Source of the DNA: a virus
DNA length: 12,076 nt
IMG/VR virus record: IMGVR_UViG_3300010244_000045
Location: 1 to 12,076 of that record
Strand: one strand, 5' to 3'
Shown here: positions 1 through 12,076 of the stretch, piece after piece
Layout of the letters: every line of letters begins with the position of its first letter
Numbering within the stretch: the stretch's first letter is position 1
Program-made: the position numbers and the translations under genes
The notes under the pieces: model-generated
What the model was told of the DNA's origin: nothing
The model's input: the letters and a program-made list of their open reading frames with translations, nothing else
The model's database searches: none

Positions 1-199
1 GCAGAGCTGTGAATGACCGACCTTCCCTAACACAGATGTCAACACCTGTCAAGAAATAGGGTGAAGATACGAAACCGAGATATATAGAGGTGAGAAGTCA
101 ACAAGTGAGAAGTCAACAAGTGAGAAGAGTGAAATAGAGAGGGTAGACTAGAGAGGGTAGTAGTGGTGGTGTAGCCTGAGTTAACCTAATGAGAGGCTA
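1..199 (+). repeat. Terminal module copy A (199 bp, GCAGAGCTGTGAATGACC...GAGAGGCTA) with 2 iterons
   Basis: The same sequence restarts at 207 after a 7-nt spacer (GGGTAGT). The only difference from copy B is the 15-mer copy number: 274 - 199 = 75 = 5 x 15. Confidence 0.95.
90..127 (+). repeat. 15-bp tandem iteron array GTGAGAAGTCAACAA, 2 full copies plus an 8-nt partial
   Basis: Full copies at 90-104 and 105-119. Partial GTGAGAAG at 120-127. Confidence 0.97.
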
Positions 200-229
200 G
201 GGTAGTGCAGAGCTGTGAATGACCGACCT

Positions 230-258
230 TCCCTAACACAGATGTCAACACCTGTCAA
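230..258 (-). promoter_or_regulatory. Outward-facing promoter-like element in module B (copies also at 24-52 minus, 11819-11847 plus and 12025-12053 plus)
   Basis: Read on the strand pointing to the nearest genome end: TTGACA, a 17-nt spacer ending in TGT, then TAGGGA. The -35 is perfect and a TGn motif is present, but the -10 is weak. A second TTGACA lies 10 nt downstream. Confidence 0.3.
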
Positions 259-295
259 GAAATAGGGTGAAGATACGAAACCGAGATATATAGAG

Positions 296-408
296 GTGAG
301 AAGTCAACAAGTGAGAAGTCAACAAGTGAGAAGTCAACAAGTGAGAAGTCAACAAGTGAGAAGTCAACAAGTGAGAAGTCAACAAGTGAGAAGTCAACAA
401 GTGAGAAG
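296..408 (+). repeat. 15-bp tandem iteron array GTGAGAAGTCAACAA, 7 full copies plus an 8-nt partial
   Basis: Seven perfect head-to-tail copies at 296-400. Partial GTGAGAAG at 401-408. Confidence 0.97.
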
Positions 409-577
409 AGTGAAATAGAGAGGGTAGACTAGAGAGGGTAGTAGTGGTGGTGTAGCCTGAGTTAACCTAATGAGAGGCTATATGTGAAGAGATAAGGGTT
501 AACGAATAGTAACGCCTTAGAATGATATAGAATGGCTTAGACGTTGAATGTGAAGGTCTGAGAGGTGGTATGAAATG

Positions 578-599
578 ATAGGGTTGTAATAGGGTTGTA
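578..599 (+). repeat. 11-bp tandem duplication ATAGGGTTGTA x2 inside the ITR (mirror at 11478-11499)
   Basis: 578-588 is identical to 589-599. Confidence 0.9.
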
Positions 600-680
600 G
601 TCAAGGTCTCTAGGTTCAAGCAAAGAGAGTAAGAAAGAAATAGAGTAAGCTACTAAGAAGTAACCTACTCTAGTTGTTGT

Positions 681-748
681 CTATTCGTTTATGTAAACAC
701 CTTGTCTTAAGAGTGTTTGAATGGTTTCTTGTTCAGTTTCTGAGGCTG
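681..748 (-). pseudogene. Orphan copy of the last 22 codons plus stop of the 722-aa tail gene, carried in the left ITR
   Basis: Exact reverse complement of 11329-11396 (...ASETEQETIQTLLRQGVYINE stop). It has no upstream reading frame, start codon or RBS on the minus strand. Confidence 0.85.
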
Positions 749-751
749 AAC

Positions 752-780
752 TTGTAATTGTATTCTATTTGTGTTAGAAT
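752..780 (+). promoter_or_regulatory. Early promoter P1, immediately inside the left ITR boundary
   Basis: TTGTAA (752-757), a 17-nt spacer with TGt at 772-774, then TAGAAT (775-780). The context ATTTGTGTTAGAAT matches the recurring promoter box. Confidence 0.6.
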
Positions 781-840
781 GATAGTAGGTGTTATAAATT
801 GATTAGGGATTAGTGTACTTTCGTTTCTAATGTCAACAGA

Positions 841-856
841 TATTTGTGTTATATTA
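841..856 (+). promoter_or_regulatory. Early promoter P2 (extended -10 box TATTTGTGTTATATTA)
   Basis: TGt at 847-849 and TATATT at 850-855, about 30 nt upstream of the AAAGGAGG RBS of the first ORF. TGTCAACA at 831-838 overlaps the spacer/-35 region. Confidence 0.55.
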
Positions 857-887
857 AGTATAGAAGGCAATAAAAGGAGGTGAAATT

Positions 888-989
888 ATGTATACAGTAG
901 ATGATTTATTAGAGTTTGTTGAGCATTGCAAACAAGAGGGTATTGAAGTAACTATGATGAACTTTGAAAAGTATAAAGAAGATAAATAG
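888..989 (+). CDS. Small hypothetical protein, 33 aa (MYTVDDLLEFVEHCKQEGIEVTMMNFEKYKEDK), not in the supplied ORF track
   Basis: ATG at 888 preceded by AAAAGGAGGTG (872-882) at ideal spacing. Open to TAG at 987-989. It is the first frame downstream of the early promoters. Confidence 0.5.
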   Translation: MYTVDDLLEFVEHCKQEGIEVTMMNFEKYKEDK

Positions 990-1004
990 AAGGGGGTGTT
1001 AACA

Positions 1005-1268
1005 ATGGCAGAAGTATTAGACAGAAAAGAACAGTCTAAACGTTATGGTGCATTTTGTAAGAACTTTCGTATCGAGTATTTACGAATGGGCTTAGTGGAG
1101 TTCTCAGAACAGACTGATTTGAATTATAAGAGTGTATCGGCTTTTGAGAGTGGTAGGGCTAATAGTTTAGTTTACTTGTACCATTACTACAATATGGCTA
1201 GTGAAAATCAAAAGAAAGTTTTTGCAAATAACATATTTGAAAGAGTAGGAGGTTGTTTTAATGGCTAA
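1005..1268 (+). CDS. XRE-family helix-turn-helix transcriptional regulator (87 aa from ATG 1005)
   Basis: LRMGLVEFSEQTDLNYKSVSAFESGRANS fits the Cro/CI-type HTH pattern. AGGGGG (991-996) lies 8 nt before ATG 1005, so that start is preferred over the track's GTG at 996. Its stop overlaps the next start (ATGGCTAA). Confidence 0.7.
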   Translation: MAEVLDRKEQSKRYGAFCKNFRIEYLRMGLVEFSEQTDLNYKSVSAFESGRANSLVYLYHYYNMASENQKKVFANNIFERVGGCFNG

Positions 1269-1851
1269 ACGAGGAAGAGGTAGACCTTCAGACCCTCCAG
1301 AGATTAGGGCTTTAAAAGAGAAGTATAGAAACGAAATAGCGAAAGCAAATGCAAGGCTACGAAACATCAGAAAAAAAGAGGCAGAGTATTCTCCGGCTTA
1401 TCAGGCTTGGGAAAATAATCTAGGTAGAAACTTTTCAACTGGTGGTCTGAAGAGTGAAAATGAAATTAAAAACGAGATGAGCCGAGTTAGAAAGTTTTTA
1501 AGTAATGAAACAAGCCTCCCAAGTGTAGCTGAAAAGTTTACCGAAAAGCTAGGCGAACGAATAGGCAGGCTAACTCAAGGGTATCGAACAGATGTAGATG
1601 TAGCAGTAGAACCTTTGACTCAGGATCAAATGAAACCTGTATTTGAAGCAGTAGGGAAATACCGACAGGAAAGACAAAAAAGGCGAAACGCTACTGACTT
1701 AACGTCAACAAGAATCTTTCAGGAAGTTCAAGAATTTTCTGAGGGATTAGGAATAGACCTAGCAGAAATGGATTCCGTGGACGTTGAAAGAGCAGTACAA
1801 CAAATGTTTAATATAGAACCCGACGAAGAAATTAATTTCTTTGACTTTTAG
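1261..1851 (+). CDS. Candidate terminal (priming) protein, 196 aa
   Basis: Lies directly upstream of, and translationally coupled into, the protein-primed polymerase module. It has a basic N-terminus (MAKRGRGRP...IAKANARLRNIRKK) and an acidic C-terminus ending in FFDF, loosely resembling phi29 p3 as I remember it. GGAGG lies 8 nt upstream of the ATG. Confidence 0.55.
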   Translation: MAKRGRGRPSDPPEIRALKEKYRNEIAKANARLRNIRKKEAEYSPAYQAWENNLGRNFSTGGLKSENEIKNEMSRVRKFLSNETSLPSVAEKFTEKLGERIGRLTQGYRTDVDVAVEPLTQDQMKPVFEAVGKYRQERQKRRNATDLTSTRIFQEVQEFSEGLGIDLAEMDSVDVERAVQQMFNIEPDEEINFFDF

Positions 1852-1872
1852 TAGGGGGTGAAGAATTGAATA

Positions 1873-3996
1873 ATGAATACTAGATTAGATTTAACAAATA
1901 TAAAAAAGCCCAAAACATACAGCAAGGACAATGTAGACTATCTTAACATCGAATGTGGGTTCGATATCGAAACAAGTTCTACATTAGATGAAAATGGGAA
2001 ACCATTTTCGAACATGTACGCTTGGACTTTTGGAATACAAGATAAAAATCATATAGTTTACGGCAGAACTTGGGAAGAGTTTGAAGCCTTAATGTATGAA
2101 CTGAAAGATTACTTCAATCTTGGGAAGGGTAGAAGATTAATCGTTTATGTTCATAATTTAACCTATGATTTTCAATTTATGAGAAAAAATTTTAAATGGT
2201 CTCGAATTTTTGCTAGAGATGTACGAAAACCAATTATAGCAACTACGGAGTTAGGAATTGAGTTTAAAGATAGCTACTTATTGAGCGGTTACTCATTAAA
2301 TGATGTAGCTGAACGGTTAACAAAACCTGAACACCAGATTAAAAAGTTAAAAGGTGACATGAACCATGATTTAGTTAGACATTATGACACTAAACTAACA
2401 AACAATGAGCTAAAATATATGGAAAATGATGTGCTTATCATTCTCTATTATATTAACGAACAGATAGAGCTTTATGATAATCAAATTACTAAAATACCAT
2501 TAAGCAATACTGGACGAGTAAGACGGTTCATCAAATATAATTGTTATTTTTTCACCCCGAAAGGAACGAAGGACTCTAATGGACAAATAGCAAGGTTTGA
2601 CCAAGATATTCATGGCTTAACGTTGAGTTCAAACGTATATAGATTATCTAAACAAGCCTTTATGGGTGGCTTTACACATGCAAATAGTAAATACGTAAAC
2701 AAAGTTGTTAAAGATGTAGTTAGTTATGATTTATCTAGTTCGTACCCTTCAACGTTACCAACTGAGCTTTTCCCAATGAGTACAGGTGAAAGAATCCACC
2801 CCGAAAACTTGGAAGAACTAAAAGCCCAAAAGAGTAATTATTGTTTATTATTTCAAATACGCTTTAAAAATATCTCGAGGAAATCACATATCCCAGACGA
2901 CTATATAAGTTCTAGCAAGTGCCAGACCCTAGAAGCTCCTATCTTAAGCAACGGACGAGTAAACGGAGCTGATGAGCTAGTAACTACTATTACAGATGTA
3001 GACCTAGACATCATCGAACGTGTTTACACGTGGGATAGTGTAGAAATAGCTGGAGTATATAGGTTTAAAAAAGGCTATATACCAAAACGTATCATTGATT
3101 CTATTATAACACTATTTAGGAACAAAACAAAGCTGAAAGGTATTAAAGATAAGATTTTAGACTACCAACTAAGTAAAGAAATGCTTAATGCAGTATACGG
3201 AATGATGGTAACTGACCCTGTAAAATCTGATATTGTTTATAATAAAAAATTTGACGAGTGGGGAGAGGTAGACCCCGACATGAAGAAAGAACTTAAAGAA
3301 TATAACGAAGAAAAATATAGAACCCTTTTTTATCCTTGGGGTATTTGGGTTACAGCTTACGCTAGGCGTAATTTGTGGTACTTAATCGAGTCACTGGGAC
3401 AAGATTATATTTACTCTGATACCGACTCAGTGAAGTTTAAAAACCATGAAAAACACAAGCATCTGTTTGAACGGTATAATAAAATGGTAGAGAAAAAACT
3501 AGAAGTTAGAGCTGGTAAAAATCACGGGTACACTCTCGAAGACTTCAAGCCTCAGACACCTGAGGGTGAAACGAAAACACTTGGATTTTGGGAGCTTGAC
3601 GGTGAATATTCCAAGTTTAAAACCTTAGGAGCTAAGATGTATCTAGTCGAACACAAAAACAACAAAGAACTTGAAGTAACCGTATCAGGACTAAGCAAGG
3701 AACATGGGAAAAACTACCTTAAAAAGCATTTTGAAAACACTGAAAACATCTTTAATAATTTTACAAATAAACTGACTATATCAGCTGAGGAATCAGGCAA
3801 AAAGTCCGTTTACTACTTGGACAAGTCCCGAAATGCTAAAATAACGGACTACCAAGGACAAACAAGAGCAGTCCACTCACGAACAGGTGTTTATATGGAA
3901 AATGCACACTTTACTTTAGATGAGACTGAACGAGATTTTGACTTAGTAAAAGACCTATTCAACGGCTACATTTACGAAGGTGAAAGTAGAATATAA
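1873..3996 (+). CDS. Protein-primed family-B DNA polymerase, 707 aa
   Basis: Motifs found: Exo I GFDIETSS; Exo II YVHNLTYDFQF; Exo III YMENDVLI; motif A YDLSSSYPS; motif B KEMLNAVYGMM; motif C YSDTDSV; KxY motif LGAKMY. The order and spacing match phi29-type polymerases. Confidence 0.97.
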   Translation: MNTRLDLTNIKKPKTYSKDNVDYLNIECGFDIETSSTLDENGKPFSNMYAWTFGIQDKNHIVYGRTWEEFEALMYELKDYFNLGKGRRLIVYVHNLTYDFQFMRKNFKWSRIFARDVRKPIIATTELGIEFKDSYLLSGYSLNDVAERLTKPEHQIKKLKGDMNHDLVRHYDTKLTNNELKYMENDVLIILYYINEQIELYDNQITKIPLSNTGRVRRFIKYNCYFFTPKGTKDSNGQIARFDQDIHGLTLSSNVYRLSKQAFMGGFTHANSKYVNKVVKDVVSYDLSSSYPSTLPTELFPMSTGERIHPENLEELKAQKSNYCLLFQIRFKNISRKSHIPDDYISSSKCQTLEAPILSNGRVNGADELVTTITDVDLDIIERVYTWDSVEIAGVYRFKKGYIPKRIIDSIITLFRNKTKLKGIKDKILDYQLSKEMLNAVYGMMVTDPVKSDIVYNKKFDEWGEVDPDMKKELKEYNEEKYRTLFYPWGIWVTAYARRNLWYLIESLGQDYIYSDTDSVKFKNHEKHKHLFERYNKMVEKKLEVRAGKNHGYTLEDFKPQTPEGETKTLGFWELDGEYSKFKTLGAKMYLVEHKNNKELEVTVSGLSKEHGKNYLKKHFENTENIFNNFTNKLTISAEESGKKSVYYLDKSRNAKITDYQGQTRAVHSRTGVYMENAHFTLDETERDFDLVKDLFNGYIYEGESRI

Positions 3997-4050
3997 GCTA
4001 GTTAGAATAGAATAATTGCAAGAATTATGATGAAAATAGAACGCCCCTTC

Positions 4051-4066
4051 ATTTATGTTATATTAG
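4051..4066 (+). promoter_or_regulatory. Promoter box upstream of the packaging module (ATTTATGTTATATTAG)
   Basis: TGt at 4056-4058 and TATATT at 4059-4064. The 15-nt context is near-identical to the boxes at 841-856 and 6724-6739. It lies inside the track's N-terminal extension of the ATPase ORF. Confidence 0.5.
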
Positions 4067-4098
4067 AGAGAGAAGGGGCAAAAAGGAGGCTTCACGAG

Positions 4099-5223
4099 TT
4101 GGTAAAAGTTGAACAAGATATACCAAAAAAGAACAAGAAAAATAAATATTACTCCTTAAATTCAATTCTAGGTAAAAACGCCGTCTATAATGTTGTATTT
4201 GGGGAACGGTCAAACGGTAAAACGTACGCCGTGCTTAAATACGCTATTGACCAGTATTTTAATGGCAATGGTGGAGAGTTTGCTATCATAAGACGGTGGC
4301 AAGAAGATATACGAGGGAAACGGGCTAGTGCTATCTTTTCCGCCCTCATTGAAAACAATGAAATTTACGAGCTATCAGGTGGTGAATATGAAGGGGTAAC
4401 CTACTTTAACGGTAGGTTCTTCTTTTGTAACTATGAGGGCAACAAGCCTATTTACAACGAAGGTGATGTATTCGCTTACATATTTTCATTATCTGACCAA
4501 GAACACAATAAGTCTTTTTCATATCCAAAAGTGAAAACGATTTTATTTGATGAGTTTCTAACCAGAGGTATGACGTTAACAGATGAATTTGTACTTTTCA
4601 TGAATACTATTTCAACTATCATCAGACAGCGAACAGATGTAAAAATTTTCATGCTTGGGAATACCGTAAACAAATATTCCCCGTATTTTAAGGAAATGGG
4701 CTTAAAACACGTACCAAAACAGGAACAGGGTACCATAGACGTTTACGATTATGGGGAGAGCAAGCTAAGAGTAGCGGTTGAATATGCTTCTAGTTCAGAA
4801 GCCAAGAAAAAGAATAACTTTTACTTTGCCTTTGATAATCCAAAACTAAGCATGATTACAGACGGAGCTTGGGAGTTAGACATTTACCCTCATTTACCCG
4901 TCAAGTACAAACCCCAAGACATTTTACTTACATATTTTATCAAGTTTGACGGCAACATTTATCAAGCTGAAATCATAGATACAGACGGAGAACCGTTTAC
5001 CTACATACATGACAAGTCAACTCCTATCAAGAACGAGAATGAAGACCTTGTTTTCAGTCTTGAATTTAACCATAAAATGAACTATCAAAGAAGCATATAT
5101 AAACCTGTAAACCAAGTAGGAAAAGCGATACTCTACTTTTTTCAAATGGATAAGATTTTCTATCAAGATAACGAAGTAGGAGACGCTATTAATAACTACC
5201 TGAATATATCAAAACAACTATAA
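4099..5223 (+). CDS. DNA encapsidation (packaging) ATPase, phi29 gp16-like. Proposed TTG start at 4099 (374 aa); the track start at 4027 is the alternative.
   Basis: Walker A region NVVFGERSNGKTYA followed by FAIIRRW, and Walker B KTILFDEF, parallel phi29 gp16 (FVIGARGIGKSYA...FIYVRRY...FDEF). AAAGGAGG (4082-4089) lies 9 nt before an in-frame TTG at 4099. There is no SD before ATG 4027, and a promoter box sits at 4056-4064. Confidence 0.88.
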   Translation: MVKVEQDIPKKNKKNKYYSLNSILGKNAVYNVVFGERSNGKTYAVLKYAIDQYFNGNGGEFAIIRRWQEDIRGKRASAIFSALIENNEIYELSGGEYEGVTYFNGRFFFCNYEGNKPIYNEGDVFAYIFSLSDQEHNKSFSYPKVKTILFDEFLTRGMTLTDEFVLFMNTISTIIRQRTDVKIFMLGNTVNKYSPYFKEMGLKHVPKQEQGTIDVYDYGESKLRVAVEYASSSEAKKKNNFYFAFDNPKLSMITDGAWELDIYPHLPVKYKPQDILLTYFIKFDGNIYQAEIIDTDGEPFTYIHDKSTPIKNENEDLVFSLEFNHKMNYQRSIYKPVNQVGKAILYFFQMDKIFYQDNEVGDAINNYLNISKQL

Positions 5224-5236
5224 AGGAGCTGAACAA

Positions 5237-6706
5237 ATGGCTTATAATGAAAAATTCGATTGGGGTATTTATAACGGAATCGGAATTACATATGACTATA
5301 AAGATAAGTCCTTAAACGTACGTAGACAAATTCACTATATGCTGAACAGAAGTTTACTGATGTTTAAATATCACGGGTTACCTGATTCCCTCCCTGCTAA
5401 AGAATTAGAACGACTATTACAAACGAATGGATACGCTGGGGTTACTGAGGTAGAAGGTGACTTATACGCCTTTTACGGTGGGTTAGGAGGTGAACCGAAC
5501 GTTTACGGAAAACCTACTACAATGACCATAGCCAACCCTGCTTTAAACTACAATGAAATGCTAGAAATTGGAGAAGAGGTTGTTTTAGCTAAGAATGACG
5601 ATTTAATGATGGGCTTAGTTCCTATTTACTCAAAATATTCAACGCTTATGAATGAAAATGAGATAACTATGATTCTCAGCCTCATTAATAAACGAGCTAA
5701 CAACATGATTAGTGTTACAGATGATAACACAGCAGAATCAGCTAGGCAGTACCTGAAGAACCTTGAAGCTGGAGACTTAGGCTACATATTCGAGAACAAA
5801 CTCTTTGATTCCCTGAAAACCAATCCGACTGGAGAAGGTTCAGGAACCAATTTAAACGAGTTAGTAGAGTTTGAACAGTACGTTAAAGCTAGTATGTATA
5901 ACGAGATAGGCTTAAATGCTAACTTCAACATGAAGCGTGAACGCCTTGTTTCAGACGAATTAGAAGCCAACTCAGAAACCTTGTACCCTCTAGTAGATAA
6001 TATGCTAGACAATAGACGTCAAGCCGTAGAACAGATTAATGAAATGTTTGGTACAGAGATTCAAGTAGAATTTAACTCAAGCTGGGATATGAGACTAGGA
6101 CAAGAAGAATATACAGAAGCTTCAGACGAGACCCGAGAAGAAGAGTTAAACCCTGAAACTGATTTAGGGTTAGAAGATATAACATCAGAAGAAAATGAAA
6201 GTCCTCAAGGTGAAGACGTAGAAAATGACTTAAACCTTAATGATGAAGGAATAACTGAAGATACTGAAGCATTGGAGTATTTACACACCTTAGAGCCTGA
6301 AGAATCTGAAGAGGACACTGAGACGGAATCAGAGGACGAACAAGAGGTTACTGACACTGAAAACGATGAAGAGACTGCTTATCCCTCAGAAGACAGTACA
6401 GAGCCTTTAAATGAGTCTGATGAAGACGTTGAAGAACCGACTGAAGAACCTCAAGGAGAGAATACAAATATTGATATAGATATCAACGTAGACTCTCAAT
6501 CAGAAGCCACAGAAGAGCCTGAGAATGATTTAGAAGAAGAGAATGAAGAAACACCTGAAGAGGATACAGAAGAGCTCACAGAGTATTCTGAGGACGATTC
6601 AGAGGAAGAGGTTAACGTAGAGGTCAACGTAAACACTGAAGAGAATACTGAAGAACCTGAAGAGGAAGACGAGGACGAAGAGGGAGACGAACAACTTTCA
6701 GACTAA
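5237..6706 (+). CDS. Portal/connector protein (phi29 gp10-like, aa 1-288) fused to a 201-aa polyacidic C-terminal tail
   Basis: Several blocks are co-linear with phi29 gp10 as I remember it: LLMFKYHGLPDSLP, NVYGKPT...ANP, NENEITMILSLINKRANNMISV, MYNEIGLNANFNMKRERLVSDE and RRQAVEQINEMFGTEIQVEF. AAGGAG RBS at 5222-5228. Confidence 0.9.
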   Translation: MAYNEKFDWGIYNGIGITYDYKDKSLNVRRQIHYMLNRSLLMFKYHGLPDSLPAKELERLLQTNGYAGVTEVEGDLYAFYGGLGGEPNVYGKPTTMTIANPALNYNEMLEIGEEVVLAKNDDLMMGLVPIYSKYSTLMNENEITMILSLINKRANNMISVTDDNTAESARQYLKNLEAGDLGYIFENKLFDSLKTNPTGEGSGTNLNELVEFEQYVKASMYNEIGLNANFNMKRERLVSDELEANSETLYPLVDNMLDNRRQAVEQINEMFGTEIQVEFNSSWDMRLGQEEYTEASDETREEELNPETDLGLEDITSEENESPQGEDVENDLNLNDEGITEDTEALEYLHTLEPEESEEDTETESEDEQEVTDTENDEETAYPSEDSTEPLNESDEDVEEPTEEPQGENTNIDIDINVDSQSEATEEPENDLEEENEETPEEDTEELTEYSEDDSEEEVNVEVNVNTEENTEEPEEEDEDEEGDEQLSD

Positions 6707-6723
6707 AAATGAAAGCACTTCCA

Positions 6724-6739
6724 ATTTGTGTTATATTAG
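6724..6739 (+). promoter_or_regulatory. Promoter box upstream of the head module (ATTTGTGTTATATTAG)
   Basis: TGt at 6729-6731 and TATATT at 6732-6737. The flanks match the 4051-4066 box, including the downstream AGAGAGAG. Confidence 0.5.
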
Positions 6740-6759
6740 AGAGAGGAGGGTAAAGAAGA

Positions 6760-7374
6760 ATGCACGTACATAATTTATATAAAGATGGAAAAGGCATTTT
6801 TCATTACATAGACCAACTAGAAGAACTACCCTTCAGGGAAATGTTAGATACAGAAACCGTAGACCTGCTTTTTATCAGCCTTCACGGTTCGAGAGAAGTA
6901 TCAACAACCGTCCGAAATATAGTAGGTGATGAAGAAGTAACAGAGGATAATTTAAAGGCAGTAGCTAGTATGCTTCACGGACTTTATTTTAAAAAGTGGG
7001 TGAACTTATACAACATTTACGCCCGAGAGTTAGAACTTGAGACTTATAACCTAACAACCACTGAAACCATTGATGATGACGGGAAAACAAGTTCAGATAC
7101 CAATGACTCAACAACAACAACCAGACAAACAGGCGTAGCTGGTTATAATAGTGAAGATTTTGCTAATGATGAAGAAGAATCACTAAAAGATGAGGCAACA
7201 GGTGAACGAACAGGAACAAGTCAAAATGAACGAACCAGAGAAACACAGGTTAAAGGTAATACTGATAACCTAATAGATGATAGAAATAAAGCAATAAATG
7301 CACTTAAATATAACCTACTTCAAGATACAATCTTTAAAGATGTGAATCAGTTTGTAGGTACACTAATTTATTAA
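6760..7374 (+). CDS. Virion-module protein of unknown role, 204 aa (candidate scaffolding protein or lower-collar/adaptor)
   Basis: AGGAGGG RBS, and a position between the portal and capsid genes. The termini look helical and the centre is rich in T/S/D/E. I recognised no diagnostic motif. Confidence 0.6.
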   Translation: MHVHNLYKDGKGIFHYIDQLEELPFREMLDTETVDLLFISLHGSREVSTTVRNIVGDEEVTEDNLKAVASMLHGLYFKKWVNLYNIYARELELETYNLTTTETIDDDGKTSSDTNDSTTTTRQTGVAGYNSEDFANDEEESLKDEATGERTGTSQNERTRETQVKGNTDNLIDDRNKAINALKYNLLQDTIFKDVNQFVGTLIY

Positions 7375-7388
7375 AGGAGAATGAATCA

Positions 7389-8552
7389 ATGAGAGTTGAA
7401 CAAATACATGAAATTATGAACCAATCGACATCAGAAGTATTAGGTAGAGAAGGTATTGTAAAAGAAGACCTTTCTAATATCGTAGACGTGGGTAACGAGA
7501 TTATTGGTTCAGATAATATTGATAACTATGTTAAAAAGCTAGTCAACCATATTGGAAAAGTGGTTTTTGATAACCGAACATATTCAGGAAACGTTCCAAG
7601 CGTATTAATGGATAGCTGGGAATTTGGATCAATCCTAGAGAAAATCAGCGCAGATATTCCACAAGCTGAAGAAAACGAAAGCTGGAATTTAAACGATGGT
7701 GAAGTATACGGACAAGATACTTTCTACCAACCTAAAGTAAACGCTAAATTCTTCAACTCTAAAGTAACTTTTGAAGTACCAATTTCATTTACTGAGCTTC
7801 AGGTTAAAGAATCGTTCTCTAACGCTGAACAGCTAAACGGTTTCTTATCTATGATTTTCAACGCAGTAGAGAAATCTCTAACTATCAAAACTGATAACTT
7901 AGTTATGAAAATGTTGAATAACATGACAGCTGAAACCCTAACAGATGACTTAGTAGACGGAGAAGGTACTTTACAGTTGAGCCAATCAGGAACAAAGGCT
8001 ATTAACTTGTTGAGTCTATACAATGAGCAAGCTGAAGGAACAGTTACGAAAGATGTTGCACACCGTAACCCTGATTTTATCCGTTTTGCTTCATACGTGA
8101 TTAACCTTTATAAAGACCGTATGACTAAGATTAGTACGTTGTTTAACGTTGGTAAGAAAGAACGCTTCACACCTGAACAAGATATTAACGTAGTTCTTCT
8201 TTCAGACTTTGCAAGCGCTTCAACAGCCTTCTTACAGTCTGATACTTACAATAGTGAGTTAGTAGCGTTACCGAACTATGAAACAGTGCCTTACTGGCAA
8301 GGTTCAGGGGAAACGTATGACTTTACAGAGGTTTCTAAAATCTCAGTCAAAACATCAAACGGTGACCATGTAACCACTGATGGAATTTTAGGAGTTATGT
8401 TTGATAAACAAGCCGTAGGTGTAGCTAACTTAGATAGACGAGTTACTTCCCACTACAATGCTAAGGCTGAGTTCTACAACAACTTCTACAAAGCAGACGC
8501 AGGTTATTTCAACGACTTAAACGAAAACTTCATTGTTTTCTTTGCTGCTTAA
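7389..8552 (+). CDS. Major capsid protein, 387 aa
   Basis: Its size, its position after the portal/scaffold-like genes, its AAGGAG RBS and the strong terminator downstream all fit. Blocks such as KKLVNHIGKVVF and GVMFDKQAVGVANL resemble phi29 gp8 (LVDRIGLVV, LVDKDWFMVYDNL). Confidence 0.78.
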   Translation: MRVEQIHEIMNQSTSEVLGREGIVKEDLSNIVDVGNEIIGSDNIDNYVKKLVNHIGKVVFDNRTYSGNVPSVLMDSWEFGSILEKISADIPQAEENESWNLNDGEVYGQDTFYQPKVNAKFFNSKVTFEVPISFTELQVKESFSNAEQLNGFLSMIFNAVEKSLTIKTDNLVMKMLNNMTAETLTDDLVDGEGTLQLSQSGTKAINLLSLYNEQAEGTVTKDVAHRNPDFIRFASYVINLYKDRMTKISTLFNVGKKERFTPEQDINVVLLSDFASASTAFLQSDTYNSELVALPNYETVPYWQGSGETYDFTEVSKISVKTSNGDHVTTDGILGVMFDKQAVGVANLDRRVTSHYNAKAEFYNNFYKADAGYFNDLNENFIVFFAA

Positions 8553-8589
8553 TTAACTACATAAATCTAATCTAGTATTTAGGGTAGGG

Positions 8590-8770
8590 TTCTGATACTG
8601 AGGGATAAGGGTAGGTATCAACATTTAGTCAAAGTTACTCGTGCCGACATTCAAAAGTAACTTGTCCTTTTACATATCTATGTAAAAACAGATTCATAGA
8701 ATGGCTTAAAATGTCATTCTAAACTCACTAAGAGGGTAGGGGTAGGAGGTTACCCTTACCTTCTTTTTTT
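8590..8770 (+). ncRNA. Structured non-coding region (4 hairpins plus a terminator hairpin); candidate packaging RNA or structured 3' UTR
   Basis: Stems: 8593-8598/8615-8620; 8632-8639/8656-8663; 8668-8675/8680-8687; 8697-8705/8713-8721; 8731-8744/8751-8764. The region has no ORF or RBS. Confidence 0.3.
8731..8770 (+). terminator. Rho-independent terminator after the capsid gene
   Basis: AGAGGGTAGGGGTA (8731-8744) pairs with TACCCTTACCTTCT (8751-8764), including two G-U pairs, around the loop GGAGGT. A T-run follows to 8770. Confidence 0.8.
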
Positions 8771-8789
8771 ATATTAAGGAGCGTACCAG

Positions 8790-9221
8790 ATGGAAATAAA
8801 GTTGTATAATACAACCAATTCAAATAACACGATTAATAAAGAATTAACTGACGAATTAACGTATAATATTCAATTTACAGACACAGCCAATGTTATCAGC
8901 CCCGTTGTAAGATTAAAAGATGAACAGCTAGTTAAACGGAACTATGCTTACATACCTAACTTTAAACGGTATTATTTTATTCGAGATATAAGCAGTAAAC
9001 CGAATCGAATAACGACTTTAGAGTTAGAAGTAGACGTATTGGAGAGCTTCAAAGAGGATATTTTAGAATCATACGGAACTGTAGGACGACACTTAGGAGC
9101 TAACAAGTATTATGATGGTGGAAGTTACCCGAGTGAAGAAAGAAAGACTCATACGATTTATAAGAGTGATGTTACACCAGAATTTGAAGAAACAGTCTTG
9201 ATGACATTGATTGGAGGTTAA
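8790..9221 (+). CDS. Tail knob N-terminal-domain protein, 143 aa (phi29 gp9 N-terminus-like)
   Basis: NYAYIPNFKRYYFIRDISSKPNRITTLELEVDVLESFKEDI parallels phi29 gp9 [48 protein letters not shown] lies 8 nt upstream. Confidence 0.7.
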   Translation: MEIKLYNTTNSNNTINKELTDELTYNIQFTDTANVISPVVRLKDEQLVKRNYAYIPNFKRYYFIRDISSKPNRITTLELEVDVLESFKEDILESYGTVGRHLGANKYYDGGSYPSEERKTHTIYKSDVTPEFEETVLMTLIGG

Positions 9222-9227
9222 ATATAA

Positions 9228-11396
9228 ATGGCAAATTTATCTGAACTAAATCCTTTTCCAGAAAGAGACCCTTACGCAACCTCATTCCCTGTAAACAAAG
9301 TGTCTTCGCCAGCCATTGAAATTAGAAGCTCTACAAACGACGCAGGGCGAACTACATTAGACGATTCGGTTACGATTTGGGTAAGTGATAGGTTAAAAGA
9401 TATTGATAACGTTACAATATACATGTTCAAGGCGGGTACAAGTGGTGGCTTTTTCTCACAACCTAGCGAAAGTATATTTCCCGACAATGGTATACCTTCA
9501 GAACAGTATAAGGGTGCAAAGTACTTCAGATTTAGAATAGGCGATTACTTCACTGAAGACGATATTCTAGAAGAATTGAGGGTAAGGGTAGACGTTGTCC
9601 CTCAAGGGCAGGCAAAAACGGGAATACCTATAGAATTTAATCTTGATGATGAGCTTACAACCTCGAATAATCATTGGGAATACGTAGAACTTGATACGCC
9701 TATAACAATCAAAGCTGAATCAGACCAGGCTATTAATGCAATGAGAATCACGCGTGCTACAGGAATACATTCAAGTTGGCAGGATAACATTGCTGACACT
9801 GATTATTTTGATGTTAAAATACCAGACGAAAGTGTTCATAATCAGACTGAATTTACTTTTACTATAGGAGACTATAGAGCTAGTTTTGGTAGAGATTTAT
9901 GGTTCACAATAAACGCTACAAGCGTACCTGCTGAAGAAATACCACTCATCGAAGCAACTTACAGTGAATCATTGGTTAACTTAACTAGCGATAAGCTAGA
10001 TGATATGGTTATTGAAGGGCAAGACAACCTTGTAACATTTAGCTCTACTGATGACCATCATTATATAAGTTCACTAGAGATTGATTTAGAATATACAAAC
10101 ATGGAAGTAAACACTGTTGAGGTAACACTAAGTGAACGTCAAAAACATATAACTGTAGACCTGAGCAGATACCTTGAAGATGATTTACTTGGTATTCACA
10201 TGAAGGGTAGAGCTGATAAACTTAGAACATGGCTTACATACACAACTGAAGAAGAAGCAGAGGACAACCCAAGTTTCACTGCTACGGTAATCAATGCAAC
10301 AGTACAAAATCAGTCTGATATGATTAATGATGATGATATAATCGTGATTACAGGTAACTCAGGTAGAGTCTTTAATGACCCTATTACATTACGAATAGAT
10401 TACCCTGATGAGCTTATCAGAGGGGGGACAACAGCCCCCACACATGAAACATTCACAGCGTACCCTGATGACCCCGAAACAGCAGGTTATTTCAGTGAAG
10501 ACAAGGGAACTGTACGTATACCTGTTGCTGACTTTTGGAAGGAAGAGTACTACGAATTCCCACCTGGGAGGGTAACAATCACACAAGCTGTAGCGTCCCA
10601 AAAGAAGCTTACCGACGGTTTTGTAACCAACTATGCTAACATATTCAAAATGAGTAGAGAGAGCTTAGACGAGTTCACAGAAGCCTTGTACAGCTTTGAT
10701 TCGAATAGCTACCTAGATAGCGTTTATAATCGGGTACATTCAATCTACAGCATGCCTTTCAAGCTACCTGATGAGATGATTTCAGAGGAGCCTAAAGACA
10801 TTATTACATATAATTCAGGTGGTACTAATGTTGAGAGTCCTGAAGCTCGTTACATACTTGATAATAAGTACATTGTCCCTTTAGGCACGATTAGCGTAGA
10901 GGGCGAGTATGGTAACGTATATGACTTTAAAGACACTCAGGCATACGTACACGCACCTTATGTAGAGCAACCTATACTAGTAGACCCTAGTTACGTAATC
11001 AATGAGCAAGTCACTCTAAACGTCGCAATAGACCTTTATAACGGTAATGCTACACTGAACATACATTCGAGCAAGATACAAGGAGAGCTAGTGCAAAGGA
11101 ACAACATTCCTATTAAGCACGATATACCAATGGTAAGCAACTCTTACAACGTGATTGAGGGCGTAGTTGGTGGCTTTGTATACAACCAAGTAACCACACC
11201 TTTCATTGAGATTGTCCGTAATATACCTTATGAATCAGGTTCTATGTTCGGTAAAGAATCTAATGACTACTCACAACTCAAACACTTCACAGGCTATATT
11301 GAAGTGATGACAAGTCACGTCAACTCAACAGCCTCAGAAACTGAACAAGAAACCATTCAAACACTCTTAAGACAAGGTGTTTACATAAACGAATAG
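9228..11396 (+). CDS. Tail knob/receptor-binding protein, 722 aa: four tandem beta-rich modules plus a gp9-like C-terminal region
   Basis: The C-terminus FTGYIEVMTSHVNSTASETEQETIQTLLRQGVYI resembles the gp9 C-terminus [34 protein letters not shown]. GGAGG lies 10 nt upstream. It is the largest late ORF, and its last 68 nt lie in the ITR. Confidence 0.72.
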   Translation: MANLSELNPFPERDPYATSFPVNKVSSPAIEIRSSTNDAGRTTLDDSVTIWVSDRLKDIDNVTIYMFKAGTSGGFFSQPSESIFPDNGIPSEQYKGAKYFRFRIGDYFTEDDILEELRVRVDVVPQGQAKTGIPIEFNLDDELTTSNNHWEYVELDTPITIKAESDQAINAMRITRATGIHSSWQDNIADTDYFDVKIPDESVHNQTEFTFTIGDYRASFGRDLWFTINATSVPAEEIPLIEATYSESLVNLTSDKLDDMVIEGQDNLVTFSSTDDHHYISSLEIDLEYTNMEVNTVEVTLSERQKHITVDLSRYLEDDLLGIHMKGRADKLRTWLTYTTEEEAEDNPSFTATVINATVQNQSDMINDDDIIVITGNSGRVFNDPITLRIDYPDELIRGGTTAPTHETFTAYPDDPETAGYFSEDKGTVRIPVADFWKEEYYEFPPGRVTITQAVASQKKLTDGFVTNYANIFKMSRESLDEFTEALYSFDSNSYLDSVYNRVHSIYSMPFKLPDEMISEEPKDIITYNSGGTNVESPEARYILDNKYIVPLGTISVEGEYGNVYDFKDTQAYVHAPYVEQPILVDPSYVINEQVTLNVAIDLYNGNATLNIHSSKIQGELVQRNNIPIKHDIPMVSNSYNVIEGVVGGFVYNQVTTPFIEIVRNIPYESGSMFGKESNDYSQLKHFTGYIEVMTSHVNSTASETEQETIQTLLRQGVYINE

Positions 11397-11404
11397 ACAA
11401 CAAC

Positions 11405-11446
11405 TAGAGTAGGTTACTTCTTAGTAGCTTACTCTATTTCTTTCTT
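11405..11446 (+). terminator. Terminator-like hairpin after the last gene, encoded within the right ITR
   Basis: TAGAGTAGGTTAC/GTAGCTTACTCTA forms an imperfect 13-position stem with 2 mismatches and a 6-nt loop, followed by TTTCTTTCTT. The mirror copy is at 641-672. Confidence 0.55.
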
Positions 11447-11596
11447 ACTCTCTTTGCTTGAACCTAGAGACCTTGACTACAACCCTATTACAACCCTATC
11501 ATTTCATACCACCTCTCAGACCTTCACATTCAACGTCTAAGCCATTCTATATCATTCTAAGGCGTTACTATTCGTTAACCCTTATCTCTTCACATA

Positions 11597-11870
11597 TAGC
11601 CTCTCATTAGGTTAACTCAGGCTACACCACCACTACTACCCTCTCTAGTCTACCCTCTCTATTTCACTCTTCTCACTTGTTGACTTCTCACTTGTTGACT
11701 TCTCACTTGTTGACTTCTCACTTGTTGACTTCTCACTTGTTGACTTCTCACTTGTTGACTTCTCACTTGTTGACTTCTCACCTCTATATATCTCGGTTTC
11801 GTATCTTCACCCTATTTCTTGACAGGTGTTGACATCTGTGTTAGGGAAGGTCGGTCATTCACAGCTCTGC
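11597..11870 (-). repeat. Terminal module copy B, right arm (mirror of 207-480)
   Basis: Reverse complement of 207-480, ending in ...CACAGCTCTGC at 11870. Confidence 0.95.
11669..11781 (-). repeat. Mirror of the 7-copy iteron array (TTGTTGACTTCTCAC on the + strand)
   Basis: CTTCTCAC at 11669-11676, followed by seven TTGTTGACTTCTCAC units to 11781. Confidence 0.97.
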
Positions 11871-11877
11871 ACTACCC

Positions 11878-12076
11878 TAGCCTCTCATTAGGTTAACTCA
11901 GGCTACACCACCACTACTACCCTCTCTAGTCTACCCTCTCTATTTCACTCTTCTCACTTGTTGACTTCTCACTTGTTGACTTCTCACCTCTATATATCTC
12001 GGTTTCGTATCTTCACCCTATTTCTTGACAGGTGTTGACATCTGTGTTAGGGAAGGTCGGTCATTCACAGCTCTGC
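11878..12076 (-). repeat. Terminal module copy A, right arm (mirror of 1-199)
   Basis: Reverse complement of 1-199. Confidence 0.95.
11950..11987 (-). repeat. Mirror of the 2-copy iteron array
   Basis: Reverse complement of 90-127. Confidence 0.97.

Follow-up and report, generated by a model that had tools for sequence, protein, structure and literature searches.

Apparent tandem duplication of a putative terminal origin unit in the long inverted terminal repeats of a 12-kb phi29-type phage contig

Phages of the Astrithrvirus group (Astrid/astrithr, DU_PP_III and Phanie) and their metagenomic relatives have genomes of ~12 kb with a shared gene set and order: small early genes, a candidate terminal protein (TP), a protein-primed polymerase, the Gp16 ATPase, the connector, a phi29-type major capsid protein (MCP) and the tail genes. 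They also share inverted terminal repeats (ITRs), in which short tandem repeats come after a conserved TTCCC(C) box near the terminus. The ITRs of the isolates measure 60-219 bp; lengths of 515-639 bp are confined to the sub-clade of L010, L011 and L013. Here we analyze the IMG/VR virus record IMGVR_UViG_3300010244_000045 (the whole stretch of 12,076 nucleotides, called the window below), a relative of these phages in which a terminal module appears twice per ITR arm, at positions 1-480 of the left one. On balance, we regard 1-480 as the outer part of a genuine long ITR, in which a terminal origin unit of 206 or 281 bp is repeated head to tail.

The two ITR arms of the window (left, 1-748; right, 11329-12076) are exact reverse complements of each other, with every left-arm feature mirrored at coordinate 12077-x and the identity ending abruptly at base 749. 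The left arm starts with a conserved terminal core, termed P (1-89; all module features are given on the plus strand), which carries TTCCC at 23-27 and GTCAACA/TGTCAA at 37-52. P is followed by an array of the 15-bp iteron GTGAGAAGTCAACAA (90-127; 2.5 copies with 100% matches by Tandem Repeats Finder (TRF), two full units at 90-119) and by an 80-nt segment, termed S (120-199), which holds a 14-bp GAGAGGGTAG(ACTA) unit twice (137-163). GGGTAGT (200-206) lies between this copy and the inner one and is here taken as nt 1-7 of the terminal unit. The inner P (207-295) is identical to the outer, the inner array of GTGAGAAGTCAACAA spans 296-408 (TRF 7.5 copies, score 226, 100% matches; seven full units at 296-400), and the inner S (401-480, identical to 120-199) leads into unique ITR sequence. 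Base 127 is the last base common to both copies before they branch. Counting GGGTAGT, the unit is 206 bp long with 2 iterons and 281 bp long with 7, and the junction reads ...GAGAGGCTA-GGGTAGT-GCAGAGC. The duplicated module is far beyond chance. A preliminary description of this DNA had reported an exact 748-bp ITR, a module at 1-199 repeated directly at 207-480 after GGGTAGT, copies that differ only in iteron number (2 vs 7) and a second terminus-like sequence ~206 bp inside the contig; as an account of the contig, this is accurate in every number, P and S being 100% identical between the copies. A degenerate, possibly older S-like copy at 560-601 is weak (score 26, reached by 3 of 300 shuffles). 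Open reading frames (ORFs) within 1-480 are translations of the repeats, those across the junction are shorter than 30 aa, and exact-protein look-up of the spurious ITR ORFs 245-400, 296-418 and 467-619 found none on record.

We find that the length of the exact stretch common to the contig end and the inner copy is 127 nt (1-127 = 207-333). At k = 127, the terminal 127-mer is the sole k-mer repeated on an arm, and at k = 128 there are no repeats at all. The JGI metagenome workflow runs metaSPAdes with k = 33,55,77,99,127, that is, with a top k of 127 (bioRxiv 10.1101/2020.09.30.320929), and several near-identical and related contigs originate in JGI samples; the value of 127 used here is taken from this workflow and from the repeat length, not from the contig's own assembly record. 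In a de Bruijn graph such a sequence is a node that has an exit and also a 206-bp loop back to itself, and a walk that takes the loop once therefore gives a contig that begins exactly k bases before the branch. Six alternative genomes have the same 128-mer set as the window (11,328 canonical edges), which does not change when the ends are lengthened outward with GGGTAGT, with 50 nt, with one or with three more modules, or in an arm-asymmetric way. Trimming both ends by 1 nt costs an edge and a foreign base brings in a new one; no string shorter than the window spells the loop once. Because the terminal 127-mer is repeated and the 128-mer set is the same as that of longer genomes, the contig end was very probably set by the assembler, and position 1 is most likely a loop closure rather than a measured genome end.

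This bears on several claims of the preliminary description. GCAGAGC, at position 1, had been taken as the terminus; the contig starts there exactly 127 nt before its only branch point, and the sequence lacks the terminal reiteration of protein-primed ends (PMC5175343). Two modules per arm had been counted, which is a lower bound, since the 128-mer content is the same for longer genomes; the number of 206-bp units per arm is at least one. Finally, the right arm had been noted to show the same asymmetry. A de Bruijn assembly spells both arms out of one set of collapsed edges; the right arm thus adds no independent evidence, and the identity of the outer 324 nt between the arms is expected from graph collapse. 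A comparable loop is seen in another contig, L088, where 1-55 equals 87-141 (period 86 bp) as the sole repeated 55-mer, with no repeated 56-mer, mirrored at the right end; 55 is the metaSPAdes default top k, and L088 stops short of the conserved terminal box. L088 also carries a degenerate third copy after its nested repeat, which suggests that tandem duplication of modules may occur naturally in these ITRs, too.

An assembler working at k = 127 has no means of making up 128-mers; each link that fits within one 128-mer must therefore be backed by reads, an argument that holds if k was 127 and the k-mers are free of errors. Four links are short enough: S-GGGTAGT-P, P-2 iterons-S-GGGTAGT (112 nt), P-7 iterons-S (115 nt) and at least 3 iterons-S-unique sequence (126 nt). 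The length of the inner array can be resolved at this k because its 113 nt are fewer than 127. The difference of 2 vs 7 iterons and the junction are thus probably physical, and there is good reason to believe that the junction is present in at least some molecules. A 7-iteron unit preceded by the junction would need a link of at least 135 nt, beyond any k-mer.

To locate the probable true terminus, we anchored an alignment of contig ends from relatives at the conserved TTCCC(C)/TTTCCC box. In sample 3300045988, many contigs retain an Illumina adapter tail, ...GTGCTCTTCCGATCT, fused directly to AAAGGTACAC, and this fusion pinpoints the physical 5' end (AAA...) of the phage genomes concerned. 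Adapter-bearing ends are found in L082, L071, L059, L063, L085, L013 and L105 (all IMG/VR 3300045988), and represent contamination in public contigs. Twelve ends start exactly with AAAGGTAC and have the box from nt 30; in isolates and others that start with GGGTTATCC, GGGTATATCC or GGGATATCC, the box lies at nt 31-36. Several GGG-type termini (first 15 nt; L003, L054, L050, L076) read GGGTTATCC(G/C)..., GGGATATCC... or GGGTATATCC... and look similar to a DnaA-box-like core, TTATCC, with a C-run behind it. The window has its box at contig nt 23, or at nt 30 if GGGTAGT is nt 1-7, and nt 30 is the modal box offset among relatives with adapter-marked or isolate ends. Known protein-primed genomes carry terminal reiterations for sliding or jumping back (phi29 3'-TTT, PRD1 3'-CCCC, adenovirus 3'-GTAGTA, Bam35 3'-ATAATA) (PMC5175343). 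Such a reiteration is present in GGGTAGT, as GGG, and absent from GCAGAGC. Because of this GGG and of the box at nt 30, we read GGGTAGT as nt 1-7: rather than the spacer it had been called, the heptamer is probably part of the repeat unit and its likely terminus. With that inferred terminus, the inner copy would be a complete end sequence. The likeness of the astrithr contig start GGCTAGGGT to the junction was put down to chance, as this sequence is internal in the longer Astrid record.

Exact-protein look-ups recovered the same phage, at 99.6-100% identity, from 5-6 other assemblies (JGI 3300020216, contig L028; JGI 3300009048, L027; ENA L034, a MEGAHIT k141 contig; ENA L113; and Logan contigs). 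The inner ITR boundary at 748 and the S sequence are reproduced on both arms across independent assemblies. On the left arm, the boundary and the sequence inward from ~324 recur in L028, L027 and L031; the inner boundary of the right arm and the S-to-481 junction recur in L028, L027, L034 and L113. All other assemblies differ from the window by a T-to-A change near 600 on both arms, as expected if the arms are homogenized. L028 stops within the 15-bp array on both sides and L034 in S, while L113 breaks off in the 14-bp repeats, as does L027 on its right side. Of the 14-bp unit GAGAGGGTAGACTA, the two L028 arms have 4 and 3 copies (60-115 vs 11298-11353) and the window has 2. The 4 vs 3 of L028 may mean that its arms truly differ, or that the population has two alleles and the assembler used each of them once. 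Since the count of this unit differs between assemblies and arms, the distal ITR varies in copy number and is a region where assemblies break. An exact search of IMG/VR viral contigs with the P start gave no match, and an iteron-pair search of IMG/VR viral contigs and GTDB genomes found none; two JGI metagenome contigs (L032, L033) are unrelated chance 20-mer matches. In L027 (Ga0116604_10169), a 27.5-kb scaffold, window positions 676-11647 lie between the bacterial sugar-utilization genes GntP, PTS and NanE. An integrated prophage was considered and rejected, the joins at 7497 and 18471 being single-N gaps of a scaffolding chimera.

We next compared the ITR with those of 87 related contigs of at least 9.5 kb, collected from isolates and from a capsid-profile search of IMG/VR. 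Terminal ITRs are found in 66 of the 87 and span 25-639 bp, the 748 bp of the window being the longest. The nearest relatives have ITRs of 576 bp (L010, 76% capsid identity), 639 bp (L011, 73%) and ~517 bp (L013). Without the extra 206 bp the window ITR measures 542 bp, which is ordinary for the sub-clade, and the ITR length is not unusual in the way that had been claimed. Iteron arrays within ~30-220 nt of the end are common in relatives, conserved in position and not in sequence: L015 has 9 x 8 bp (41-113), L008 16-bp units (31-68), L011 33-bp units (41-108) and L013 15-bp units (173-217). A long ITR with iterons is thus normal for the group. The nested terminal duplication is seen only in the window and in L088 among the surveyed contigs.

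The inner part of the ITR contains gene sequence. A hairpin with a 14-bp stem and a T-run (641-672, minus strand) has its right-arm copy at 11405-11436 (plus strand), which follows the last gene's stop codon at a distance of 9 nt and is likely the late operon terminator. The last gene codes for a 722-aa tail protein (9228-11396, plus strand) and has its stop codon inside the right ITR; 681-748 (minus strand) is the left-arm copy of its last 68 nt, the inner ITR edge lying within this gene on the right arm. On that arm, the innermost 108 nt of the ITR are therefore functional, as tail gene end and predicted terminator. The homologous tail gene of L010 and L011 likewise ends at or adjoining the right ITR. 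Because the end of this gene adjoins or enters the right ITR in all three genomes, the arrangement indicates that the ITRs of this clade may have grown by copying one end onto the other.

Both iteron motifs are strongly enriched. GTCAACA occurs 24 times in the window (1.7 expected), in P, in every 15-bp iteron and at 832-838, just 5' of the promoter-like element of the first gene. AGGGTAG occurs 17 times (1.35 expected): GGGTAGT belongs to this motif family, as do the 14-bp repeats of S, and three more copies lie in an intergenic region at 8553-8789; L010 reads GTCAACAC near its end. We rejected the iterons as promoters, a scan of 1-480 having returned no promoter-like site; the minus-strand TTGAC(A/T) hexamers have no -10 partner by eye. 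In phi29, the p6 nucleation regions lie 46-68 and 62-125 nt from the ends (PMC4974454). We infer that the iteron arrays are putative binding sites for a phage protein that would organize or open the origin. An 87-aa early protein (1005-1268) looks helix-turn-helix-like by eye only, with no Pfam or PHROG support.

We propose that the terminal unit consists of GGGTAGT, the 89-nt core, the 15-bp GTCAACA iterons and the 80-nt segment with its 14-bp GGGTAG iterons. The iterons would be bound by a phage protein that organizes or opens the origin beside the priming site, and the length of the arrays could change by slippage or unequal recombination. The unit itself may have been duplicated by one non-homologous join or template switch of a complete terminus to the end of S, and homogenization of the ITRs would maintain the duplication or spread it between the arms. 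This combination of a non-homologous join and arm homogenization is our proposal for the most economical origin of the duplication. The inner unit would be a complete but embedded origin, silent for TP priming unless exposed, and might serve as a template for repair or recombination. Re-annealing of a 3' end at an internal GGGTAGT (155-161 in S, or the ~600 site in other strains) predicts ...CTAGAGA|GGGTAGT or ...GTAATA|GGGTAGT at the junction; we rejected it because the observed ...GAGGCTA|GGGTAGT differs from both.

Several observations speak against a natural tandem repeat of the origin unit, or against parts of this reading. The five other assemblies of the phage all stop between ITR positions 324 and 676, and neither P nor the S-GGGTAGT-P junction is found in any independent assembly among IMG/VR, the JGI metagenomes and the GTDB genomes. 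The match to 127 could be a coincidence, at odds of ~1 in 200 for precisely this number. A C-run between end and box, present in most relatives, is missing from the window, and the terminus alignment is imperfect; the junction joins the last base of S to unit nt 1 with no visible microhomology; and no iteron-binding protein was identified, the small early proteins having no Pfam or PHROG family match. The breaking of every other assembly in the distal ITR, which is heterogeneous across samples, would also suit a dominant genome with a single unit (GGGTAGT-P-7 iterons-S), in which the nesting is essentially an assembly product, a possibility that the preliminary description had itself raised: a 206-bp loop, contributed by a minor variant, by a co-occurring strain or by molecules that are chimeric or aberrant, would have been threaded once per arm. 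The graph-loop signature of the window points in the same direction, as do the matching signature of L088 at k = 55 and the lack of a nested duplication in the other 86 surveyed relatives except L088. We still judge this explanation unlikely, as every junction 128-mer must have been in the input and random chimeras would not repeatedly join one internal base (480/199) to the exact unit start. In addition, 2 iterons-S-GGGTAGT and at least 3 iterons-S-481 each fit one 128-mer, which implies distinct contexts in real reads.

A genome that ends at GCAGAGC in the virion, with exactly two modules per arm, a 7-nt spacer and an inner reserve or alternative origin, matches the contig sequence exactly and is one of the many structures that yield the observed 128-mer set. 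It is nonetheless quite improbable: it needs a physical end exactly 127 nt before the branch by chance, its terminus has no reiteration, unlike characterized protein-primed ends (PMC5175343), its TTCCC box is at nt 23 vs 30-36 in adapter-verified or isolate ends, and its confirmation by the right arm is a consequence of assembly. Every path out of the 2-iteron unit in the graph leads to GGGTAGT-P and none to unique sequence, and no k-mer ties GGGTAGT to the 7-iteron context, for which at least 135 nt would be needed. Both points would be compatible with a 206-bp loop that belongs to a separate small molecule, namely a multimeric or circular mini-replicon or a defective origin-unit element that shares only the 127-mer. 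We find such a molecule far-fetched: it has no direct support and is less parsimonious than duplication within the genome, and the short derivatives of protein-primed genomes that we know of are inverted duplications, not direct tandem arrays. The tandem repeat of an origin unit in a genuine ITR hence remains our preferred reading. That virions carry a telomere-like variable array, with at least two complete origin units per end that differ in iteron number, is a tentative extension of it, which we hold to be possible rather than probable. Each unit of this array would start with GGGTAGT, and origins would be embedded at 206 bp and multiples thereof inside both ends. Such embedded units could form a buffer or repair template against end loss, or extra loading sites for an origin-binding protein.

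The window is a ~12-kb phi29-type phage, a relative of Astrithrvirus outside that genus, and presumably replicates by protein priming. All of its genes are on the plus strand. The family-B DNA polymerase of the protein-primed type (1873-3996, plus strand) matches Pfam DNA_pol_B_2 (E = 2.7e-15, 56.7 bits, cut-off 25.8), and further Pfam matches are Phi29_MCP (3.8e-53), Phage_connector (2.2e-16) and the packaging ATPase Podovirus_Gp16 (1.3e-17); the connector also matches the PHROG upper collar connector (3.6e-39). Its capsid protein shares 53-61% identity with isolates of the Astrithrvirus group, the matches being Shigella vB_SHGBLB0004, Salmonella astrithr/Astrid/assan, Pectobacterium DU_PP_III, Acinetobacter Phanie and Vibrio K58 g2, all phages of ~11-12 kb with Gram-negative hosts. 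Megablast and blastn found no nucleotide-level match to any phage record. Because of this and because the MCP is only 57-58% identical to those of astrithr, Astrid and assan, we place the window outside the genus; DU_PP_III and Phanie, with 30-40% intergenomic similarity, are themselves under the genus threshold for Astrithrvirus (PMC11476376).

Directly 5' of the polymerase gene lies a gene for a 196-aa protein (1261-1851, plus strand), a TP candidate by position, with homologues in the matching position in L010, Phanie and L001 and no Pfam or PHROG family match. No Rfam family, packaging RNA (pRNA) included, matched the window at E <= 10, which also disposes of a known RNA in the ITR; in this phage group pRNA may be absent or too divergent. 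The connector has a C-terminal extension of ~200 residues (~290-489; window 6100-6706), which is extremely acidic (D/E-rich), repetitive and absent from the shorter connectors of the isolates. The 237-nt intergenic region at 8553-8789, 3' of the capsid gene, folds much better than shuffles (z = -4.4), contains the three AGGGTAG motifs and has a strong terminator hairpin at its end. In relatives only 43-96 nt are found at this place, and the region may be a structured RNA. The element ATTT(G/A)TGTTA(T/G)A(T/A)T recurs at 767-780, 842-856, 4051-4065 and 6724-6738, that is, twice 5' of the first gene, at the start of the ATPase gene and before a gene for a 204-aa protein. It resembles an extended -10 promoter, and its 40-nt versions at 842, 4051 and 6724 are 75-100% alike.

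There is no recognizable endolysin or holin in the window, L010 or L011, and the window is without the 2-4 small leftward right-end genes of the Astrithrvirus isolates (compared with L002, L003, L004 and L005). In L011, the homologue of the 204-aa protein is inverted at the left end (529-1137, minus strand), with its 3' end within the ITR, and the homologue of the 87-aa early protein is likewise inverted (L011 sites 529-1137 (minus), 7034-7264 (minus) and 11810-11917). L011 is either a rearranged genome or misassembled across its ITR.

Taken together, the window is a variant of a known theme, the iteron-bearing ITRs of protein-primed phages, and its interest depends on whether complete origin units are tandemly repeated in virions. 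If so, it would provide a natural complete protein-priming origin inside a genome, a configuration that to our knowledge has not been described for any protein-primed phage. It would permit a direct test of whether TP priming strictly needs a free end, as well as tests of ITR growth and homogenization and of the tuning of origin strength by iteron number in the smallest tailed phages. As the evidence stands, its main value is cautionary and practical: the k of an assembler can set the contig ends of linear phages with ITRs, perfect symmetry of the arms is uninformative, and adapter remnants and conserved box spacing help to locate true termini.

The origin of phi29 is similar in that its auxiliary region lies tens of nt from the priming site, the iteron array of the window starting at unit nt 97, and that p6, a protein which binds double-stranded DNA, assembles in this region and helps to open the end (PMC4974454). 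It differs in that p6 recognizes bendability, not sequence, and that phi29 has a 6-bp ITR and no iterons, whereas the window has exact 15-bp and 14-bp repeats and no detected p6 homologue. These exact repeats suggest a sequence-specific binder. The contig end resembles the loop closure of SPAdes-type assemblers, in that the terminal k-mer equals an internal one over exactly 127 nt, like the k-length overlap of circular contigs; the looped sequence, however, is not a whole circular replicon but a terminal 206-bp tandem unit of a linear genome, and the junction k-mers must be real. Adenovirus, another protein-primed linear genome, likewise has an ITR made of a terminal core and adjacent sites, there for NFI and Oct-1. 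It is a eukaryotic virus with host factors, and its embedded ITRs are laboratory-engineered, not natural tandem duplications; an internal end copy of this type could in principle serve in repair or be activated when exposed. Poxvirus ends are hairpins without a TP, and their repeat units exclude the terminus or origin; the tandem blocks of poxvirus ITRs and the telomere-like arrays of other linear replicons are nevertheless comparable to the window in their direct repeats of variable number, which in the window, too, would change by unequal recombination and be homogenized between the arms.

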